Source: Cyanidioschyzon merolae
Taxonomy: Eukaryota
Reading direction: 5' to 3' (one strand)
Length of the DNA stretch: 64,000 nucleotides
Assembly: GCA_000091205.1 (NCBI GenBank)
Contig: AP006488.2
The notes under the pieces were generated by a model. The model was given only the letters and a program-made list of their open reading frames with translations. It did not search any database and had not been told where the DNA came from. How positions within the stretch are numbered: the first letter of the stretch is position 1; the number at the start of each line of letters is the position of its first letter. Positions 2,359 through 57,508 of the stretch are shown piece by piece. Both the position numbers and the translations under genes were made by a program.

Positions 2359-2859
2359 CTAACCGGAGAAGTAGCGCTTTGCGAGATTTTTAGCCACTTC
2401 GTGGAACCGCTTGCTCGTAATCGGTGCATCCTCTTCTTGGAATGGGTTGCACACCACATGAGGCACATAGGCCTCGTACACGGCGTGCAGAAACGCCCGT
2501 ACGTTCCGTGACGCATCGTCGCTAGCCCCATGCACTAATACGAAGCGCGTGGCTGCGTTCGGCGTGAGCTGAACCGATGCAGACCAGTCACGGAATCGGA
2601 AGATATGCTTCAAACTTCGGGCCGAGGTTAACCAATATTTCTCCTCGATATGGTCCAGAGCGCTGTAGGCAACGAACTGCAGGAGAACCTGGATGCTCGG
2701 TATGAAATGATGGGGCTCGAAGTCTCCACGCTCTGCCGGACTCGAGAGCTCTGAGCTCGTTCTCCAGTCCAGCTCGGAGAGCGATGCCGGATACAAGAGA
2801 TCGTAGAGAACACGGTCATCTCGTCCGACGATCACAAAATAATAGAGCCGCTCGCTCAT
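2359..2859 (-). CDS. TRAPPC2: TRAPP complex subunit 2 (sedlin/Trs20-like)
   Basis: 166-aa ORF. The N-terminus MSERLYYFVIVGRDDRVLYD matches the sedlin start MSGSFYFVIVGHHDNPVF. VAYSALDHIEEKYWLTS and the C-terminal CNPFQEEDAPITSKRFHEVAKNLAKRY align to conserved sedlin blocks, and the size is right. Confidence 0.85.
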   Translation of the reverse strand: MSERLYYFVIVGRDDRVLYDLLYPASLSELDWRTSSELSSPAERGDFEPHHFIPSIQVLLQFVAYSALDHIEEKYWLTSARSLKHIFRFRDWSASVQLTPNAATRFVLVHGASDDASRNVRAFLHAVYEAYVPHVVCNPFQEEDAPITSKRFHEVAKNLAKRYFSG

Positions 2860-3288
2860 GGTACGACGTTATCGATCTTCCCCGCCTGCCGCGGTTGCCT
2901 CTAAAACCAAGATGATGCCGGGTCCGCAACACCGCCAAAAGACGCGGCAGTTCCCCAAAACCGGGATCAATCAGCGCTCGGGGAGTAGCGCCCCGCCGAA
3001 AGCACCGAACCCTGCTCTAGGTTCAAGAGCAAATCGCAAACAACCCGTCTACGTCTTTTCAAACGTTTGCCGAACCAGGGCAACGAAAGATACGTCAAGT
3101 GCTGATCAGGCTCCAACGACGGTCGTCGTAACAGCAACGATAGCAGTCGTAATGATATCAGCAGCAGGAACAGTAACAATAGTAGTAGCCTGAACCTGTA
3201 CCCAGTGCCACTAGTGCCAGTCAACGGAGCCAGGACAGCTGAACTGCACTTTCCCAAATTCAGGTGCCCTGCTTCATACCCTGCCTTT

Positions 3289-14705: not shown

Positions 14706-17700
14706 CTAGGCGTTTGGCTCCTCATCCAGTGCGTCGAGCTGGTGAATCAGTGCCCTGCATCTTGCGTGGATGGTTTCGTGGGTCCGGCAGCATTCGTGGA
14801 ACATGTTATCAGCTCTCGGAATGACAGCTAAAGCGCAGCTATAGAGTTGACCGAGAATCTCTTCATCGAGCCAGGAAAAGCGGCGCTGCAACAGTGCCTC
14901 GACGACGGATGACGCAATGTTCCGGTGTGCTGGGTACCAGCGTAACTGGATGGCTGCAGTGGCTGCCCCGCGTAATCTTTTGGGGTCCTGCGAACGCTGA
15001 GCGTATACTGAGGCCAAAGCCAGCGCTTTTGCACCACAGTGAGTATCCAGGAACTCGACACAACGCCAAGTACGGGGCAGAAGCGAGTACGCTCTCAATG
15101 CCGGCCACTGTAAACGCTTGAGCTGTGCTGAGGCTTCCGCAGGGCAGTCCCAAAACTTGTTGAGATGCGCAGCGATCACCAATAAACGTTCAGGACTTGC
15201 AAGCGCCAGCGATTGCACGAAAGACTTCAGTGCTAGCTTCGCACGTTCGTGACCGCCAGGGCTGGCAGAGGCCCACAGCATCCCGTCCAGAATCGCCAAA
15301 ACGCAATGTGCTGGAGTTTCATCAGCAGCGAGCGCTGCTTCAAAGACGCTGAAAATGTGCTCTTCTGCGTCCGTCAGTGGCTTGCGAAAATCACGCGAGA
15401 GAGGCACTGTCCCGTCTGCTAGCGCGAACAACTGCGCTAAACGCTCCCTTGCCAGTGCCCGGACACTGTCAACTCGATCGAAACAGAGAAACAAGAGCGA
15501 CGGTACGAGCGCGGAAGAAAGAGCTTCCCGTTGCGGTCCCGTTAACGCGGTCTGCCATAGAAACGGCAGCACCTCGAGTGCGGCTTCGCGTACCCAGCAG
15601 CCACTGTCACCTCTAGCCGAGGTGATGTGGAAGCACAAGGACGCCGTCCAAGTCTCTAGAAGTGCGTACCAGGCCTCTGTGCGCCTCGTAGCGTCCGTGT
15701 CGCTGCATACTTGTGTCTCTACCAGCAGCGGCAACGACTCGACGATAGCGCGCGCACTCGCATGGTCCTGGGCATCTGCACAACGCTGGAGCGTGTCCTT
15801 CAGTAACGCTATATCGGTCGAGTGCCCGCTTACGGCAACGAGGACACCAAGCAGGACACAGGCTGCGTACCTGCACGGGTCCGGAACAGACGAGCGCGAT
15901 CGCTGCAACTTATTGACGAGAAGACGACGCTTTCTCGGCAGGTGAATTGTATGCACACATTGTTGGCGCCAGTGCGAAACAAGATCCGAACGCAAGCGGT
16001 TATGTTCAAAGTAGAGGAAAAGTGCCCGGCGCGCAACGGAGGCCAAGGCTGCAGCATGGTGCTCCAGCGAGCGCAGCAAATAGTCCGGTACGAGAGGATT
16101 GCAGCTGATGCACTCATGGCCGACTTCAAGCAGGGCAAGCAGCAGATCACAACGTGCACGTACGATATGCTCTGCCTCGGACTCGGTGTGAACTTGAACG
16201 GCGCATTCCATCCAGAGTGGTAGGTTGTCCAGCGGAAGCGTCATTGGCTCCGGCGTTCGTCGTGCAAGCGCACCCAGAAAGCACAGCGCTCCGTGATGCG
16301 CAGCCGCCGTGTTCTCCGTAGCCTTTCCTGTTGCGTACATCCAACACAGCTCCAACACCGCAGGCAGCGCCGTTGATACGTCTCTCGCAAACCCGCGCTC
16401 TGTGCCATCTGCCGCCGATATCGCAGCAACAGACGTCCCTGCGGTCGATACCGATCGTTCGGGCGGTGCCGCAGCAGATGCGCCCGTGAAGACATCAACC
16501 AGGGCTCTGGCTGCTCGGAATCGGATCAACGGGTCTGGTGAAACGAATAACTTGTACCGGAGCAAGTAGCACTGAATCTCGCCGGCATATTGCTGCCCGG
16601 CAGTGGCGCACAAGGCGTTGGTGAGTAAACCAAACGTAGCGTCACAGTCGGCAACACTGTAGAAGTTGACGCGATCTGCAAGGAATAGTGCGCATGGTAC
16701 AGAATCACCCCAGCGACCAGCGCATTCCTGGAGCGCTGCTGCTGCCGCTCGTCTGCATTGCACTTCACGATCATAGAGTGCGGTACATAGCAGAAGGGAG
16801 GCGATGTCGCGGCTCATCTCGCTACATGCTGTTGATGGCAAATACCGCGCGAAGGACCAGAAGACGTAGCAGGCCGCATCGCGAAGGGCCTGGTCTTCAC
16901 GCCGCAGATGATCGGGGCGTTCTAGTCCAGCTGTGAGCGCGCTGGACGTCCAGTCTATCAGGCCGCGGAGATCACCCAGAGGAACGAGTTGTGCACGCGC
17001 CAGTTCCGCGAGAAGCACACACGCACTTTGGCAGGCAATGACATCGCTTGTGCTGGTGTTTCTAATCATGTCCAGCAACTGCACAACGAGGTCGCTGTGT
17101 GCTTCCGCCGGCATCAGCCTGACCAGACCGGCGACAGCAGCAGCGGCAGCCCAGCGCGAACGGGTGTCCGCAGATAACCATATTTTTACCAGGTTCTCAA
17201 GTACCTCGAGGACTTGTGCGAGCACATCGCTTCCCCTCTGAAGCGTCAACAGACATCGACCAAACTGTTTCAGAAGCTTGACACGGGCATGCCCTGTGAG
17301 GATCCGGTACCCTGCACCGAGAAACACTTGGATGATCGGCATCATGGACTGCAGATCCTGTTCATTTCGGGCATGTTTCAGGAGCAACGCGAGATGATAG
17401 CAGAGATTCTGGAGAGCATGGGCTGCGTCATGTGCCAACTGCCTGTTGATTTCGCTGGCCAGCCAGCGCAGGTGCTCGTCGAATAGCCTCGAGGTGGAAG
17501 GTCGCATGTCACGCGTCACCAGTCGACTCATGAAACGGGATGCAGGTACTGCAGCAGCGCTGGCGGCGATCAGCCAGCTCCGTGCAACACCCAGGAGGCC
17601 ACTCGTCAGCTGTTCGTCAAGTGCGAACGGAGCTTGCGCCGCCAACTCCGCCCAACCGAACAACACGTAGGCGACTTGCCAAGGTGTCGTAACCGGTGTT

Positions 17701-18062
17701 TGAATGGGATGTTCCTTCAGCATCAGTTGGAAAAGCCAAAGTACTGTCGGGCGCTCGACTGGAAGCAGTTGGCAGACAGAGGCTAGACCTCGGACCTTGC
17801 ATAGCCGGTAAAACGCGTCGCAGGCGAGGTAACCGATGTTGTCGCATGTTATAGGCTTCTCAAGCGCGCTTCTGAGCACTCCAGCGAGTGTCGTTACAAG
17901 GCGCTCAAGAACGGCGTCCAGTACCGTCCCGTCCTCTTGAAAGGTCTCGATGAGCGTCGCGAGTTGCGCGTACGCATCGCTCTCGCCCAAGCACGACGTT
18001 CGTAACCACCGCTCAATCGCTGCACACTCTGGAACCGCCGCAGAAGTTTCGCTGTCCGCCAT
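14706..18062 (-). CDS. TBCD: Tubulin-specific chaperone D (tubulin folding cofactor D), HEAT/ARM repeat protein
   Basis: 1118-aa all-helical repeat ORF. The block LLCTALYDREVQCRRAAAAALQECAGRWG matches the TBCD-diagnostic [22 protein letters not shown]. Length and repeat architecture are consistent. Confidence 0.8.
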   Translation of the reverse strand: MADSETSAAVPECAAIERWLRTSCLGESDAYAQLATLIETFQEDGTVLDAVLERLVTTLAGVLRSALEKPITCDNIGYLACDAFYRLCKVRGLASVCQLLPVERPTVLWLFQLMLKEHPIQTPVTTPWQVAYVLFGWAELAAQAPFALDEQLTSGLLGVARSWLIAASAAAVPASRFMSRLVTRDMRPSTSRLFDEHLRWLASEINRQLAHDAAHALQNLCYHLALLLKHARNEQDLQSMMPIIQVFLGAGYRILTGHARVKLLKQFGRCLLTLQRGSDVLAQVLEVLENLVKIWLSADTRSRWAAAAAVAGLVRLMPAEAHSDLVVQLLDMIRNTSTSDVIACQSACVLLAELARAQLVPLGDLRGLIDWTSSALTAGLERPDHLRREDQALRDAACYVFWSFARYLPSTACSEMSRDIASLLLCTALYDREVQCRRAAAAALQECAGRWGDSVPCALFLADRVNFYSVADCDATFGLLTNALCATAGQQYAGEIQCYLLRYKLFVSPDPLIRFRAARALVDVFTGASAAAPPERSVSTAGTSVAAISAADGTERGFARDVSTALPAVLELCWMYATGKATENTAAAHHGALCFLGALARRTPEPMTLPLDNLPLWMECAVQVHTESEAEHIVRARCDLLLALLEVGHECISCNPLVPDYLLRSLEHHAAALASVARRALFLYFEHNRLRSDLVSHWRQQCVHTIHLPRKRRLLVNKLQRSRSSVPDPCRYAACVLLGVLVAVSGHSTDIALLKDTLQRCADAQDHASARAIVESLPLLVETQVCSDTDATRRTEAWYALLETWTASLCFHITSARGDSGCWVREAALEVLPFLWQTALTGPQREALSSALVPSLLFLCFDRVDSVRALARERLAQLFALADGTVPLSRDFRKPLTDAEEHIFSVFEAALAADETPAHCVLAILDGMLWASASPGGHERAKLALKSFVQSLALASPERLLVIAAHLNKFWDCPAEASAQLKRLQWPALRAYSLLPRTWRCVEFLDTHCGAKALALASVYAQRSQDPKRLRGAATAAIQLRWYPAHRNIASSVVEALLQRRFSWLDEEILGQLYSCALAVIPRADNMFHECCRTHETIHARCRALIHQLDALDEEPNA

Positions 18063-18770
18063 AGAGCGACTTTCAGTGGCTGTTTTCCGGTGGACCTGCT
18101 TTGACAGGTTGAGAAAGGTGCAGCGGCTGTCTCAGATCGCTTCGCCGAGAACACCGAGCGCCGTCGCAAGCAAGCCCAAAGGCCGGCGTGCAACGGCCTC
18201 GAAACGCCTCCGCTACAAAGCTCGTTTTGTTCCAGTGCACACTGGACGCGTCGAATTCCACTGATCTGAGGGCGCGATCACCGCCACAGTCGATGTGGCA
18301 AGCGTCCTTGGCTAGACCGCGGTCGCGCCTGCGTTCCTGCAGAGAAGCACCCCAGAATGGGGATGATGTGCGCAGGTGTTTGCGCGCGCACTTTTGCCGC
18401 GCGCGATTTCGATTTTATCGCCTTCAACGCTTATCTGCTTCACTCTGCTGCGGTGTAGAGCCGGAGATCGACGTCACGGTAGAATGTACCCTATAGACCG
18501 TAGACGGACTGCTTGTGGGATATATATTGTTTAATGGTCAGTACAAGAAGGACTGCATTCTCTCTTCAGCATGGTCACACCACAGTACTCAGATGGGTAC
18601 GGAAGACTGCGGGAAAAAGAGTATGCGCTTGGCCCCATAAACCGATATTATGAAAGACTGGCTGCGGTCAATGGTCGAAATCGACCCGTTAATGACCTTA
18701 CGGAATGCAAAACGAGGTGGTGGCCGACATGTACGTTTCTGTTTCTCAACAGATTGTTCATGTTGTCTTG

Positions 18771-19627
18771 AAAACATATGAATACAATCGCGAAAGGAGC
18801 GTCAGATTTCACCCGAGGTCATCTACCGACATCGAAACGACAGCGTTCCTGGAACAAAGGGATCAATATGGAGCACAGGGACGTCGATTTGTTTTTCTCA
18901 GACGATGGGACTTGTTTCGGACGAAATGGTCAGGGCGCGAATGGGTACTCGCGGAGCAGGGAGCCCGTTGTATGTACAATCGAACTAGAAGGTAGCTAAG
19001 GCATCATCATCTGTTCTAGATACAGTTGGTTCACGTAGCGGCCGCAGTATCGTTCGTACAGGAGGCTCATCCAACAGCATCAACGACTTTGTCGAAGTAC
19101 TCGAACTTCTTTCCTTGACGTCCAGAAACGCACTGCTTTGGATGCCGTGGCATCTCATCGTTTCCCTTGCGTTCGAGCTTTTGCCGATTCTATCGGGGTA
19201 GAGCTGCGTTTCATTCCTTCGTACGCTTTGTGGTCCAATCGCATAAAAAGGAGTGTTGCCTGTCGTGAAACGTAGTGATCGCTCCACTGGACGAATCGCT
19301 GAAGCGTTCATCACACGGGGACATATTAAGGCACATTTCGTGTTCCTTGAGCCAGTCCTGCTCGCTCCGGGAACGTCCTCACCACAACCTATAAAAAACT
19401 GCGTTCGTTTTCAAAGAATTAAGGTAGAGCCACGATGCATAATTCAGAAGTTCGACATGGAGAGAAGGCAGCGGAACGCTTCGGCGATAGCAGAGGACGC
19501 AGAGCTGACACAGCACCAAATGGTTCAGAGGGCGCGAGTTCTACGACACTTTGCACTGGTGAGTACAAACAGCGGCAATAAATGCATGGACTTCATGAAC
19601 CGCGACTTTAACGCTGCTATCAAGAAC
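18771..19627 (+). pseudogene. Degenerate TnpB/Fanzor-like (RuvC-fold, IS605 OrfB family) nuclease remnant; frameshifted
   Basis: Motifs appear in the expected N-to-C order across three reading frames: KTYEYNRERSVRFHP (cf. TnpB N-terminus KAYKFRLYP); RDVDLFFSDDGT (cf. RuvC-I GIDLGL...LSDGT); AIAEDAEL (cf. RuvC-II vvEDLn); LVSTNSGNKC (cf. vdPxxTSqxCsxCG); NRDFNAAIKN (cf. RuvC-III DRDxNAAxNI). The element sits in a locally lower-GC island (18.5-20.9 kb). Confidence 0.3.
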
Positions 19628-20968
19628 AGACGATTTGATAAGATGAAGACGAGACCCGTGGAGCAGACGCGAGCCAACCTTGTAGGGCAGCCTCTCAGTC
19701 TCGTAGTGTGCATGCAGATACTGAAACCGATAGCAGGCGGCCAGTCGACAAGCGCCCGGAGGAGGCGCCCGCGGATGGGCATCCATTTACCCTGCACGGT
19801 CGTGAACGTATTTTTGTTTCACTCAGGATTGCAAGGTGGAAGATCGAGGCATCGAACTGGAAATCCCGAACGTGTGACTGCTGCTGCTATACCCGGCCAC
19901 ATCGAGCGATGGAAACACCAGAATCGTTCACTGCTTGTCCGGCAGAATCGTTCGCAGTGTGTAAATTCGAGGATCTGCGTCTGTGCTGGACTGTTGAACC
20001 GTACCATACCAGTGCCATGATCCAGGCGAGTATCCAAATGGACTCCCTCACGGTTACTGAAGTTAACCTTATCGAAAATCTCCAGCGCTTCCGAGCAATG
20101 CCCCTACTGGGTACCAAACGAGTGCTTGGAAACGTTGTTCGATAAACAGATGCTACAAGTTCCAGAAGCGCGAAATGCTTCCGGATGTTGATCGAGGCGT
20201 TCAGGGCGCGGTGTGCAAAGTGTGGCGCGCATCGGGTCCTGGTCGACTCGTACCGTGGCAAGTCTGTCACCTTCGATTGCTTTGCCGTTCGGCGTTCGGT
20301 CAGCTTGCCGTTCACCACCTCGTGCGACAGTCTCTGGCTCAGCTGCTTCTTCTGTATCTAATTCAGGGTGCATCTGAGCTCGGTATGTGTGAATAAAGTA
20401 CAGGACGCGTGAAAGAAAACCGGTTTGAATCGATTCCTGCATCCGTGACTCATGATCACCATTCGTATCAACCGTACAGAAGCTTTCCATCTTGTGGCTA
20501 CTTTGATAGTCTTTTTTGGGAACGTATGGAGTAGTATGGATTGACGGAGAGTCAATCGCACAGAACGAGTTTTGCCACCTTCTGCTTTGGGTGCACGACA
20601 TTCAGAATACGGAGCACGAGAACTGCGCTTTATCTAATGATTGAACGCAGAGTGACTGGCGGGCAGAAATCAAGCCGGTTTGCGCAACCTAGCAGTGATA
20701 GCATGCAGACGTTCTGCTCGACATTCCTGCAATCTACAGCATACATTCCTTTTCTTGCATACCTGCAAGAAAAACAAACAGGGCGAGCTGATATAGGTAT
20801 TCCAGAATTCATTACCCTGAGTATCGCAACGGACCTAGAGGCGCGGGCACCCACTTCCGGGCCAAGCCATCTTTCGATGACGCCGCTCTGTGGTATGCGC
20901 AACATTCGCCGCAAACGAACATGAAATGCACACCGCTCCGTCGATATCGTACCCGAGGGCATGTACTC

Positions 20969-50489: not shown

Positions 50490-51822
50490 TTTCCGCTAAG
50501 CTGCAACTTGAACGCTCAGTAAGCACCGAAGCAACGTGATTGGTATCAGGAGGCGATCGGTTGAGATTCGAATCGAAGCCGTCCGTTGACGAGAGCGTCG
50601 CAGCGCTGTAGCACAGCAATTTTTTTCGATGTCATATCGTTTACATAGACCATGGATCCCAGATTGCGAGGTGGATAATGGTAATTGCAAAAGCGTCCAT
50701 CACGCTGCTACAGCCTACCTCCAAGTTCCATTAAATATACTTCCGTTGGGATAAACTGGTCGCTTTGTACGTTGTATCGCACACCTAATGCCTGCCCTCA
50801 GCGTCCGCAGTAGCGCCTGTACCTTTGGTACAGGTGCATCACGAAGACAGGACGGCTTTTCTATACCGCAAAGAACATTGGCTCGAGGCGTGGTGCACCC
50901 GATGTAGAGTCGGGTCTCGTCGTCAGTTTGTGCTTGGACAGTCTGCGGATGCAGGCTTGCCTTCGCTGCACGACACGCTGGAGAAACTTGGCTGTTTGGA
51001 TGAATCCTGGGAGCGGCCTCCCTCCTTCGTGATCATGCATGGAATGCGTTGTTGTCGGTTGGCAATGCGGGTTTGTGCTTGACACCCACCACAGTGGGTA
51101 ACTGCAGAGAGCGCGCTGAACCCGTGTGCGTATCCGATTCTCTGGAGCTTCCGCCCAGAAAGTAGAAAGGCAGCAGATGCTACAGTTAGCGTACGCGAGT
51201 GTGCGGATTCGTTCGGCGGTGGGTCAGTTACTCAGTTCCCGATAAGTCAGGATAGTGCAGCATGCACTCGGGTTGCTGCCTCGAAAGCTCCACATCATTG
51301 ACGCCCCACGCATCGACTTGTGGAGGACAACGGTCCACAAGAGCATCCGTTTTCCACAAGGCGGCCAAGGGATTCTACGAGGCCCCACTCCGATGCTGCT
51401 GCTGGCTTGTACATGCCCATGCGATGCTGCTGGTTGCAGATGCGCTATGCGCCGTACCTGGCGCTCTCTGATCAGCGCCCGAGTCTCACAAGTCGTGCAC
51501 AGCAACGTCGGCTCGCTACGCTCTGCTTGTCTCTACTGCAGCGGTTCCTGGCGACACCTCGCATTGGGCGCTCTCGGAGACCAACTTGCGATCCACGCTA
51601 CCAGAAGCGTACGAAGAGTAAGCGTCTCCGCACGCGATGCGCGAAGGATCTCACTGGCCCTCGTCGCGCTTGTGACAGCTCCAGTGCGGCGCTATCGGTG
51701 GAACTGCTCCTCGTACAGCCCATCTCACAACCCTGAACCGATGAACGATAGAGGTGCTGCGGAGCAACCATTCCCAATGCCTCCGCACGGATTCGCGCGC
51801 TCTGCGGAGGATTCGAGTGCCT

Positions 51823-56473: not shown

Positions 56474-57508
56474 ATCGTGGTCAAGTGAACCTGTGCGACG
56501 TGTTCGAAGCGTCTCCTCACAAAGTCGCCGGCAGCGCTCGACACTCCCTAGACGTGAGCATCGTGCGCGCAGGCCGCGCGCCGAGGCACGATCATCCAGC
56601 GCGCGGCGACGTCGAATGCTGAATGATTTTTCCGATGACGAAACGTTGACATTGAGCAGGGACCCAGATTGCGGTATGGGTATTGGAACTCGGGAAAGCG
56701 TTCATTCTGATGCAGCACCAATGCCGTGACTGATGCTCTCTGCGTGCTGCATTTTCGATGCGAAAATTAGTAGCGAGTGGCGGGTGGGGGGGCCCACGCT
56801 AGCATGCCCCTGCAAGGGCATGCGATCCGTGCGAGCGCATTGCGCTGCTGCGCATTGAACTGCACTCAGCGCCGGGCAAGCTGCTGTATTTGCGCTAAAG
56901 CATCAACTGTGCGCCAGTCCGCATGTCGACAAGCGCATAGTCCCGCTACAGGTGCCATTCCTGACCAGAGCAATGACCGTGCGAGAGCCAGCCAGGGCGT
57001 CCGGTGCTCCACCAAGTCGCTGCGAAAAACGTGTTTTGACAATCGATGCAGCCACAGCGGTGCCTACTTCGACCACGAAGAAATACGGGTCCTGCCAATA
57101 GGCCAAGCACCAGTTGGCCAGTGTTGAGGCATCCGCCCGCCCGTTGCCCCCGGATATGCGTACCCTAGCGCTGCGAAAACGCCCCCTTGGGCAACGACAC
57201 CGCTTCCAAGGCAATGCACAAGTCTGCCATGTCGTCGATCGCTGGGCGCTGTTGCCTGCACCCAGCCACCGCACCAGGGTGAAGACACAACAGGGACAAT
57301 ATTGTACAGTTCATATCACCACCGACGTACATCGCGTCCATAGCGGACCGTGGCGCTACGCTCGAAAACGGACAACGTTATCCAACCCAGATCATCATTA
57401 CCCCTTATAGCCCAGACGACCGTCCCTGGCGATCGTCGCAACACAACGTCTTGTTAGAAATAATGGCACATAAGAGACATCGATCCACATATCCGCCGTT
57501 TCGATTTC

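Follow-up and report, generated by a model that had tools for sequence, protein, structure and literature searches.

Two convergent, 5'-truncated Fanzor1 fragments of the CMe-1 type in the spacer between the TBCD-like and rhodanese genes of Cyanidioschyzon merolae

The spacer between the TBCD-like and rhodanese genes on chromosome 6, a nuclear chromosome, of the red alga Cyanidioschyzon merolae 10D is 2.9 kb long and occupies positions 18063-20968 of the 64-kb stretch of DNA analysed here (the window). We found that about 2.4 kb of these 2.9 kb are very probably transposon debris, including two independent, convergent, 5'-truncated 3' fragments of Fanzor1 elements of the CMe-1 type. The alignments fix the homology, extents and orientation of both fragments and the absence of the protein blocks upstream. 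Judged from the sequence, neither fragment could make a nuclease, both being without the WED and REC domains, the RuvC-I block and the RuvC-II glutamate, and the minus-strand copy also without the RuvC-III aspartate. The published C. merolae CMe-1A consensus and the CMe-1 protein match the window. The CMe-1A/Fanzor1 family has been known in this genome since Bao and Jurka (2013, PMC3627910), and the finding is real but ordinary. An earlier note on this DNA, made from the letters alone, had described the interval as one old, decayed insertion of an OMEGA/Fanzor-family element. A dead element of the Fanzor superfamily is indeed present; it is not of gene length and consists of two convergent fragments of about 110 codons each plus repeat DNA. 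The second of these, on the minus strand at 20444-20109, was not in that note. The parts of the spacer are:

18063-18419, no strand: unique host-like spacer upstream of TBCD; guanine-plus-cytosine (GC) content 0.597; among the loci compared, matches only the same locus in other strains
18420-19833, plus strand: composite repeat of about 1 kb of unclassified 5' sequence and a 3' CMe-1-type Fanzor1 piece of about 400 bp; paralogue, locus L050
19253-20020, plus strand: open frame of 255 amino acids (aa) through the Fanzor fragment, from the list of open reading frames (ORFs); holds NRDFNAAIKN
19433-19771, plus strand: Fanzor1 (CMe-1)-derived part of the plus-strand repeat copy; E=5.1e-50 in nhmmer with the profile built from 41 full-length elements
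19598-19627, plus strand: RuvC-III remnant NRDFNAAIKN, against the family consensus NRDFNAAINI; catalytic aspartate kept; aligned to CMe-1 and to the hidden Markov model (HMM) of the family
19887-20446, minus strand: second, independent, 5'-truncated Fanzor1-type repeat; protein-level match 20444-20109
20213-20178, minus strand: RuvC-III remnant HRALNASINIRK, reading HRALNASINI; catalytic aspartate replaced by alanine
20429-20780, no strand: third, unclassified repeat, adjoining the minus-strand fragment at its 5' truncation; GC 0.458
20781-20968, no strand: unique spacer directly following the rhodanese ORF; GC host-like, 0.559; no repeat match

The plus-strand fragment

In a blastn comparison with the published CMe-1A consensus, window positions 19427-19762 aligned with approximately positions 2739-3077 of 3169, with 67.6% identity (E=1.7e-43), and tblastn with the CMe-1 protein aligned residues 615-725 of 734, a stretch that includes the motif FVNRDFNAAINI, with 46% identity over 111 aa (E=3e-21). 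The family protein HMM matched 19406-19717 on the same strand at its positions 575-678 of 681 (independent E-value, i-E, 3.3e-19), and among all six frames of the window only the plus- and minus-strand fragments reached E<=1e-3 with this model. The motif NRDFNAAIKN, which the earlier note had read as RuvC-III, lies inside this Fanzor1 C-terminus, as tblastn, the HMM and the DNA profile agree, and the reading was correct. The absence of any Pfam match in six frames would fit a short motif arisen by chance in non-coding DNA, but the 111-aa alignment to CMe-1, the DNA match at E=5e-50 and the 407 related loci described below leave that explanation with a probability of practically nil.

Upstream of the fragment, the Fanzor gene is absent. 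Signature blocks of the nuclease had been reported in order in three plus-strand frames across 18.5-20.9 kb; on this strand we found no match to the HMM before its position 575 of 681. The family profile, run with filters off, gave no WED, REC, RuvC-I or RuvC-II block in any frame, and the RuvC-I aspartate block (G.DPG..N) had no counterpart, there being no match N-terminal of HMM position 561 in any window frame. The RuvC-II glutamate (VDEFRTS) was not found in the plus-strand copy, in which the alignment begins at the arginine after this glutamate and the sequence upstream is unrelated, and the DNA profile of 41 full-length elements had no match in the interval outside 19433-19771. Because both the DNA and the protein profiles stop there, only the last ~110 Fanzor1 codons survive on the plus strand. 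The frameshifts that had been claimed are absent from them: the alignment to CMe-1 keeps to one frame throughout, interrupted by no stop and no frameshift, and its only gap is of 1 aa. A longer fragment, reaching upstream to ~19290, where GTSSPQPIKNCVRFQRIKVEPR resembled GTTPAPTTRTYKECARRFVTIPVDEFR by eye, was rejected because in a multiple DNA alignment the window and loci L050, L018 and L002 were unrelated to CMe-1A upstream of its position ~2737, and because the protein HMM and nhmmer matches both end before that point.

A search of the protein database with the 255-aa frame returned two matches only, P0001, which comes from this locus in an environmental strain with 99% identity, and P0002, a 43%-identical paralogous fragment that carries FVNRDFNAAINIRRC. 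When the frame was compared with four strain variants, the non-synonymous share of the nucleotide differences was 5 of 5, 6 of 6, 7 of 7 and 6 of 9. The frame shows no constraint and is not a conserved gene.

The composite repeat

The plus-strand fragment would have come in with a chimeric repeat of 1.4 kb, 18420-19833, of which it forms the 3' end. Over 1435 bp, this repeat has 68% identity to L050:3979-5389, in which the same non-Fanzor kilobase is joined to the same Fanzor tail and the flanking genes differ. L050 is a paralogous locus, since its flanks are without TBCD and rhodanese; on the same ground it was rejected as the orthologous locus. In addition, L002 and L012/L018 match the composite from 19289 on, with the same Fanzor junction at CMe-1A ~2737, which is thus common to four independent loci with different flanks. 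The 5' part of the composite showed no similarity to Fanzor by profile or DNA alignment, and comparison of this kilobase with L050 gave no coding signature, all frames scoring alike. A six-frame search of 18420-19289 against the protein database also gave no match, but this result is uninformative, as the short ORFs of the locus itself were not returned.

These data bear on whether the interval could be a single plus-strand Fanzor/TnpB pseudogene of ~2.4 kb, extending over 18.5-20.9 kb with frameshifts, ~250 bp of deletions and ordered signature blocks. Its C-terminal block is real, and the plus-strand repeat copy reaches 18420, roughly the proposed start. However, no N-terminal, RuvC-I or RuvC-II block was found in any frame with the unfiltered family profile, the profile of full-length elements matches 19433-19771 only, and the sequence beyond 19833 is a different fragment in the opposite orientation. 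Moreover, the kilobase upstream is a different sequence and not a decayed gene body, because L050 has it at the same junction. We therefore regard a gene-length pseudogene as very unlikely, and transposon debris with two separate 3' fragments remains our preferred reading.

The minus-strand fragment and a third repeat

The second Fanzor1-type fragment lies tail to tail with the first, with a gap of about 50 bp between them (19833 to 19887). The family HMM matched it at positions 561-673 (i-E=1.9e-13), the last ~115 residues of the family, and the similarity to the CMe-1 family is at the protein level only. Its best single match in tblastn was to residues 558-676 of P0035 (E=4e-13), followed by P0036 (E=4e-9) and CMe-1 (E=2.6e-5); it is thus nearer to the divergent branch of P0035 and P0036, which is 43% identical to CMe-1, than to CMe-1A, and probably derives from a more divergent subfamily. 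At the position of RuvC-II it reads VFFHASCT, with the glutamate lost, and there is one in-frame stop. The DNA homologues of this fragment, L049, L053 and L072, carry longer decayed Fanzor bodies, and the window copy is therefore 5'-truncated, at ~20446.

The third repeat has relatives with 64% identity over 358 bp in L041 (8601-8952), L033, L034 and L040; as L041/L040 and L033/L034 are the same places in different samples, these represent two independent loci at most. It had no Pfam or Fanzor-profile match.

3' ends and the guide-RNA question

In Fanzor and TnpB systems, the scaffold of the guide RNA (omega RNA or fRNA) lies in the 3' tail of the element. This bears on a further explanation of the plus-strand fragment, namely that it is a copy of a small non-autonomous, tail-only family in which a different 5' body is followed, from a constant junction on, by the last ~400 bp of CMe-1, and that this tail would hold the guide-RNA scaffold and terminal hairpin, to be mobilised or used in trans. 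Three lines of evidence point this way: the single junction at CMe-1A ~2737 in four independent loci with different flanks; the 3' ends of the family, which fold as long terminal hairpins of two different sequences (mean z=-1.6, with 16 of 44 copies below -2); and an analogous derivative sharing the other end of the element, TE-N2_CMe, a 635-bp non-autonomous element with the 5' end of CMe-1A (Bao and Jurka 2013, PMC3627910). The composite differs from TE-N2_CMe in sharing the 3' end of CMe-1A and has no similarity to the 635-bp module. In the consensus stems of the 3' ends, 75.9% of cells were paired, versus 35-50% with a slid partner. However, no covariation beyond shuffled controls was found in these stems, either by RNAalifold or by explicit pair counts over the 44 family 3' ends, the hairpins of the window copy itself are degraded, and no termini, target-site duplications or empty sites have been defined for such an element. 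Furthermore, only four copies are known, from a sample picked for the C-terminus; because the loci were selected by a C-terminus match, the sampling itself accounts for the excess of 3' fragments. We consider it unlikely that the fragment belongs to a tail-only family, and likewise unlikely that its tail serves as a guide-RNA scaffold in trans; independent truncated fragments in transposon debris remain the preferred account.

An Rfam search at E<=1 gave no match. The earlier note had proposed looking for terminal inverted repeats and target-site duplications around the interval, and only short repeats at chance level were found there. Helitrons are recognised by a Rep/Hel protein, 5'-TC...CTRR-3' termini and a sub-terminal 3' hairpin, and the Fanzor1 elements of Chlamydomonas ride on Helitrons. 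Of these hallmarks the terminal hairpin is present in the CMe-1 family; its copies have ...GGCG at the end, with TT after it, in place of CTRR, and no Rep/Hel ORF was found in the elements.

The two hairpin variants occupy the same place and read CGTCGTTCGA-CTT-TCGAACGGCG and GACAACGTTTTTC-TTTT-GAAAGGCGTTTGTTGTC (for example, L049:5380-5420 and L007:5395-5440), and the L015 subfamily has a third terminal hairpin, GCGAAAAGTTTTCGC. The hairpin structure is kept with differing sequence between subfamilies, but the alignment itself shows no statistical covariation.

Locus and base composition

The window is intron-poor eukaryotic DNA with a GC content of ~56%, and Pfam identified among its genes an ordinary eukaryotic set, including a glutathione synthase, a GH47 mannosidase, a PH-domain kinase and a SET-domain protein. 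Further proteins of the window are identical to the C. merolae 10D entries XP_005535714.1, XP_005535724.1 and XP_005535711.1. The genes bordering the spacer are:

14706-18062, minus strand: TBCD-like gene; protein identical to XP_005535715.1
20969-22105, minus strand: rhodanese (sulfurtransferase) gene, the other border of the spacer

The unique segments at the two ends of the spacer are outside the repeats, 18063-18419 being presumably the TBCD promoter and 5' untranslated region (UTR) and 20781-20968 presumably the rhodanese 3' UTR. The same arrangement of the spacer is present in environmental Cyanidioschyzon populations with 97-99% identity (L001 and L003-L005), and the insertions are therefore old and fixed. 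The two fragments are probably neutral relics, tolerated in a place that has the 3' UTR of rhodanese on one side and the promoter of TBCD on the other. The mode of insertion of the elements can only be inferred; the family is without terminal inverted repeats or recognisable target-site duplications.

As the earlier note had observed, the interval is richer in AT than the flanking genes, with a GC content of 0.517 for 18063-20968 versus a mean of 0.574 for the genes of the window. The notion of a GC island stands in part: the stretch with a GC content of 0.46-0.53 is exactly the repeat-covered tract 18420-20780, but three other spacers of the window are similarly GC-poor (0.503, 0.517 and 0.527). 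Such a dip below the flanking genes might be expected of an island of foreign GC content acquired horizontally from a virus or bacterium. However, the CMe-1A consensus has a GC content of 0.523, approximately that of the spacer, several ordinary spacers of the window are as low, the family has ~150 copies in C. merolae that are ~80% identical to the consensus (PMC3627910), and no prokaryotic or viral genes were found in the interval by Pfam in six frames. A foreign island is thus extremely unlikely, and where a past transposon or horizontal insertion had been suggested, the transposon was borne out and the horizontal origin was not, as the family is endogenous, with ~150 copies and the same GC content (0.52).

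The CMe-1 family and its intact relatives

Bao and Jurka (2013, PMC3627910) described CMe-1A as an element of ~3 kb present in ~150 copies in C. merolae, each ~80% identical to the consensus, encoding the 734-aa Fanzor1 protein CMe-1, without terminal inverted repeats and with target-site duplications undetermined, and left the family unclassified. The CMe-1 consensus of that paper ends ...MEFVNRDFNAAINIRRCAVLEKRPPELTRENFVGQPL...; of the relatives that we found, P0003 is the most complete, and the two are 71% identical. We scanned metagenome contigs with an alignment of relatives of the 255-aa frame, so that loci were chosen by a match to the C-terminus, and found 407 related loci, some with open frames of 570-780 aa (the longest 778). 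Intact relatives of ~750 aa are present in related metagenomes. The long frames contain DPGNTNI, VDEFRTS and FVNRDFNAAINI in order, which are the three RuvC motifs. The elements have a single ORF and no transposase and measure ~2.7-3.2 kb, and the family as measured agrees with PMC3627910 in its length of ~3 kb, copies ~80% alike, lack of terminal inverted repeats and some intact ORFs. Compared with CMe-1A, the plus-strand copy in the window retains only the last ~11% of the element, is fused to ~1 kb of unrelated sequence and has drifted further from the consensus (68% identity) than copies usually have (~80%).

Searching the whole PDB with a profile of 13 members (hmmsearch) returned only 8gkh (SpuFz1, E=5.5e-5) and 9cer (GtFz1, E=0.024), the profile being collinear with 8gkh over ~350 residues; the same search with one intact member as a single sequence gave only noise. 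With an AlphaFold model of the protein, the best Foldseek matches were SpuFz, PpFz and GtFz (E=1.7e-10 to 7e-6), and Cas12, TnpB (2.6e-3) and the Fanzor2 protein ApmFz2 (7.9e-3) ranked lower. On sequence profile and predicted fold, the intact family is thus Fanzor1, ahead of Fanzor2, TnpB and Cas12. Its nearest solved relatives are SpuFz1 of Spizellomyces punctatus (8GKH) and the Fanzor1 proteins of Guillardia theta and Parasitella parasitica (9CER, 9CF0/9CF1), with which it is collinear through DPG (RuvC-I), DE.(R/K)TS (RuvC-II) and NRD (RuvC-III), but with only 12-14% identity. By analogy with these solved enzymes, the protein of intact members is presumably an RNA-guided DNA endonuclease. 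Bacterial TnpB (ISDra2, 8H1J) and Cas12f share the RuvC fold at the superfamily level (Foldseek E=2.6e-3 to 3.6e-3); the similarity to bacterial TnpB is much weaker than that to Fanzor1, and the family has no TnpA partner and resides in a eukaryotic nuclear host. A prokaryotic TnpB of IS200/IS605 or IS607 was ruled out, the elements having a single ORF without transposase and residing on a red-algal nuclear chromosome.

In TnpB and Fanzor proteins, the zinc ribbon (TNB), CxxC...CxxC, sits between RuvC-II and RuvC-III. Both cysteine pairs were absent or degenerate in the alignment of 13 members and in the consensus as published (THHELGC...EKC; GLLALVST), and in this the CMe-1 clade differs from the solved Fanzor1 proteins, as it does in a variable linker of 25-aa tandem repeats. 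P0035, P0036, P0038, P0039 and P0040, from Logan, ENA and JGI assemblies, are intact, 620-700 aa long and 31-43% identical to CMe-1; on the strength of these proteins, this Fanzor1 clade with few cysteines is not confined to C. merolae. The missing cysteines, which had been counted as a sign of decay, are also missing from intact members and from the published CMe-1 consensus, and are uninformative on decay because they are absent throughout the clade.

The Pfam check proposed in the earlier note, applied to six frames of 18063-20968 with stops masked, gave no relevant match even at E<=10. An intact member aligned to the Pfam model PF07282, OrfB_Zn_ribbon or Cas12f1-like_TNB, at the RDxNAAxNI positions only, with 11.9 bits and E=0.26, against a gathering threshold of 26.3 bits. 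To take the lack of a Pfam match as a refutation would wrongly reject the Fanzor identity, because even an intact member reaches only E=0.26.

Several points weigh against the reading of the spacer as transposon debris with Fanzor1 fragments. The composite repeat is known from four independent loci, in a sample picked for containing the Fanzor C-terminus, and 18420-19289 and 20429-20780 remain unclassified repeat DNA. In the AlphaFold model, with a mean predicted local distance difference test score of 53, only the RuvC half is confident, and the template modelling scores to Fanzor1 structures are low (0.24-0.32) despite the strong Foldseek E-values.

Other features of the family

The Fanzor1 ORF contains, just upstream of RuvC-I, a 75-bp (25-aa) tandem array of the type ATQKVQDNDLVVDAMKHEEKKEAS (L073:4145-4449 and equivalents), with a copy number of ~1 to 5 between elements. 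Many of the proteins P0003-P0040 carry the precomputed Pfam label PF26935.1, which our local copy of Pfam did not give for the same sequences. At L016/L051:1971-2749, L030:2602-4372, L031 and L075, pairs of 5'-truncated Fanzor copies lie head to head as near-palindromes, both arms being truncated at the same HMM position (~540-550 or ~375), which suggests inverted duplication or foldback events in the family. Approximately half of the 40 full-length copies (L006-L082) begin at CMe-1A ~650-690 and have no 635-bp TE-N2-like 5' module, and the others include it. Since about half of the long copies are without this module, the 3169-bp consensus as published may combine two elements. Other matches in the window to the first ~350-530 bp of CMe-1A represent the TE-N2_CMe 5' module, in three places:

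50627-50973 (and 51133-51164): TE-N2_CMe-type 5' module, 73% identity, E=8e-60
1571-1903 (and 1969-2044): TE-N2_CMe-type 5' module, 65% identity, E=7e-32
56633-56714: TE-N2_CMe-type 5' module, 83% identity, E=6e-16

Implications

The biological weight of the two fragments is low, as the family and its abundance were published in 2013 and both copies are dead spacer fragments. If the unlikely tail-only explanation were true, a guide-RNA or cis-acting end of a Fanzor element could spread without the nuclease gene. For C. merolae, GC-poor patches in intergenic spacers can be explained by transposon debris instead of foreign DNA. For this clade, a lack of zinc-ribbon cysteines is no evidence of decay. 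Pfam checks miss this Fanzor1 clade wholly, intact members included, and eukaryotic TnpB/Fanzor remnants therefore need family-specific profiles or structure to be recognised.

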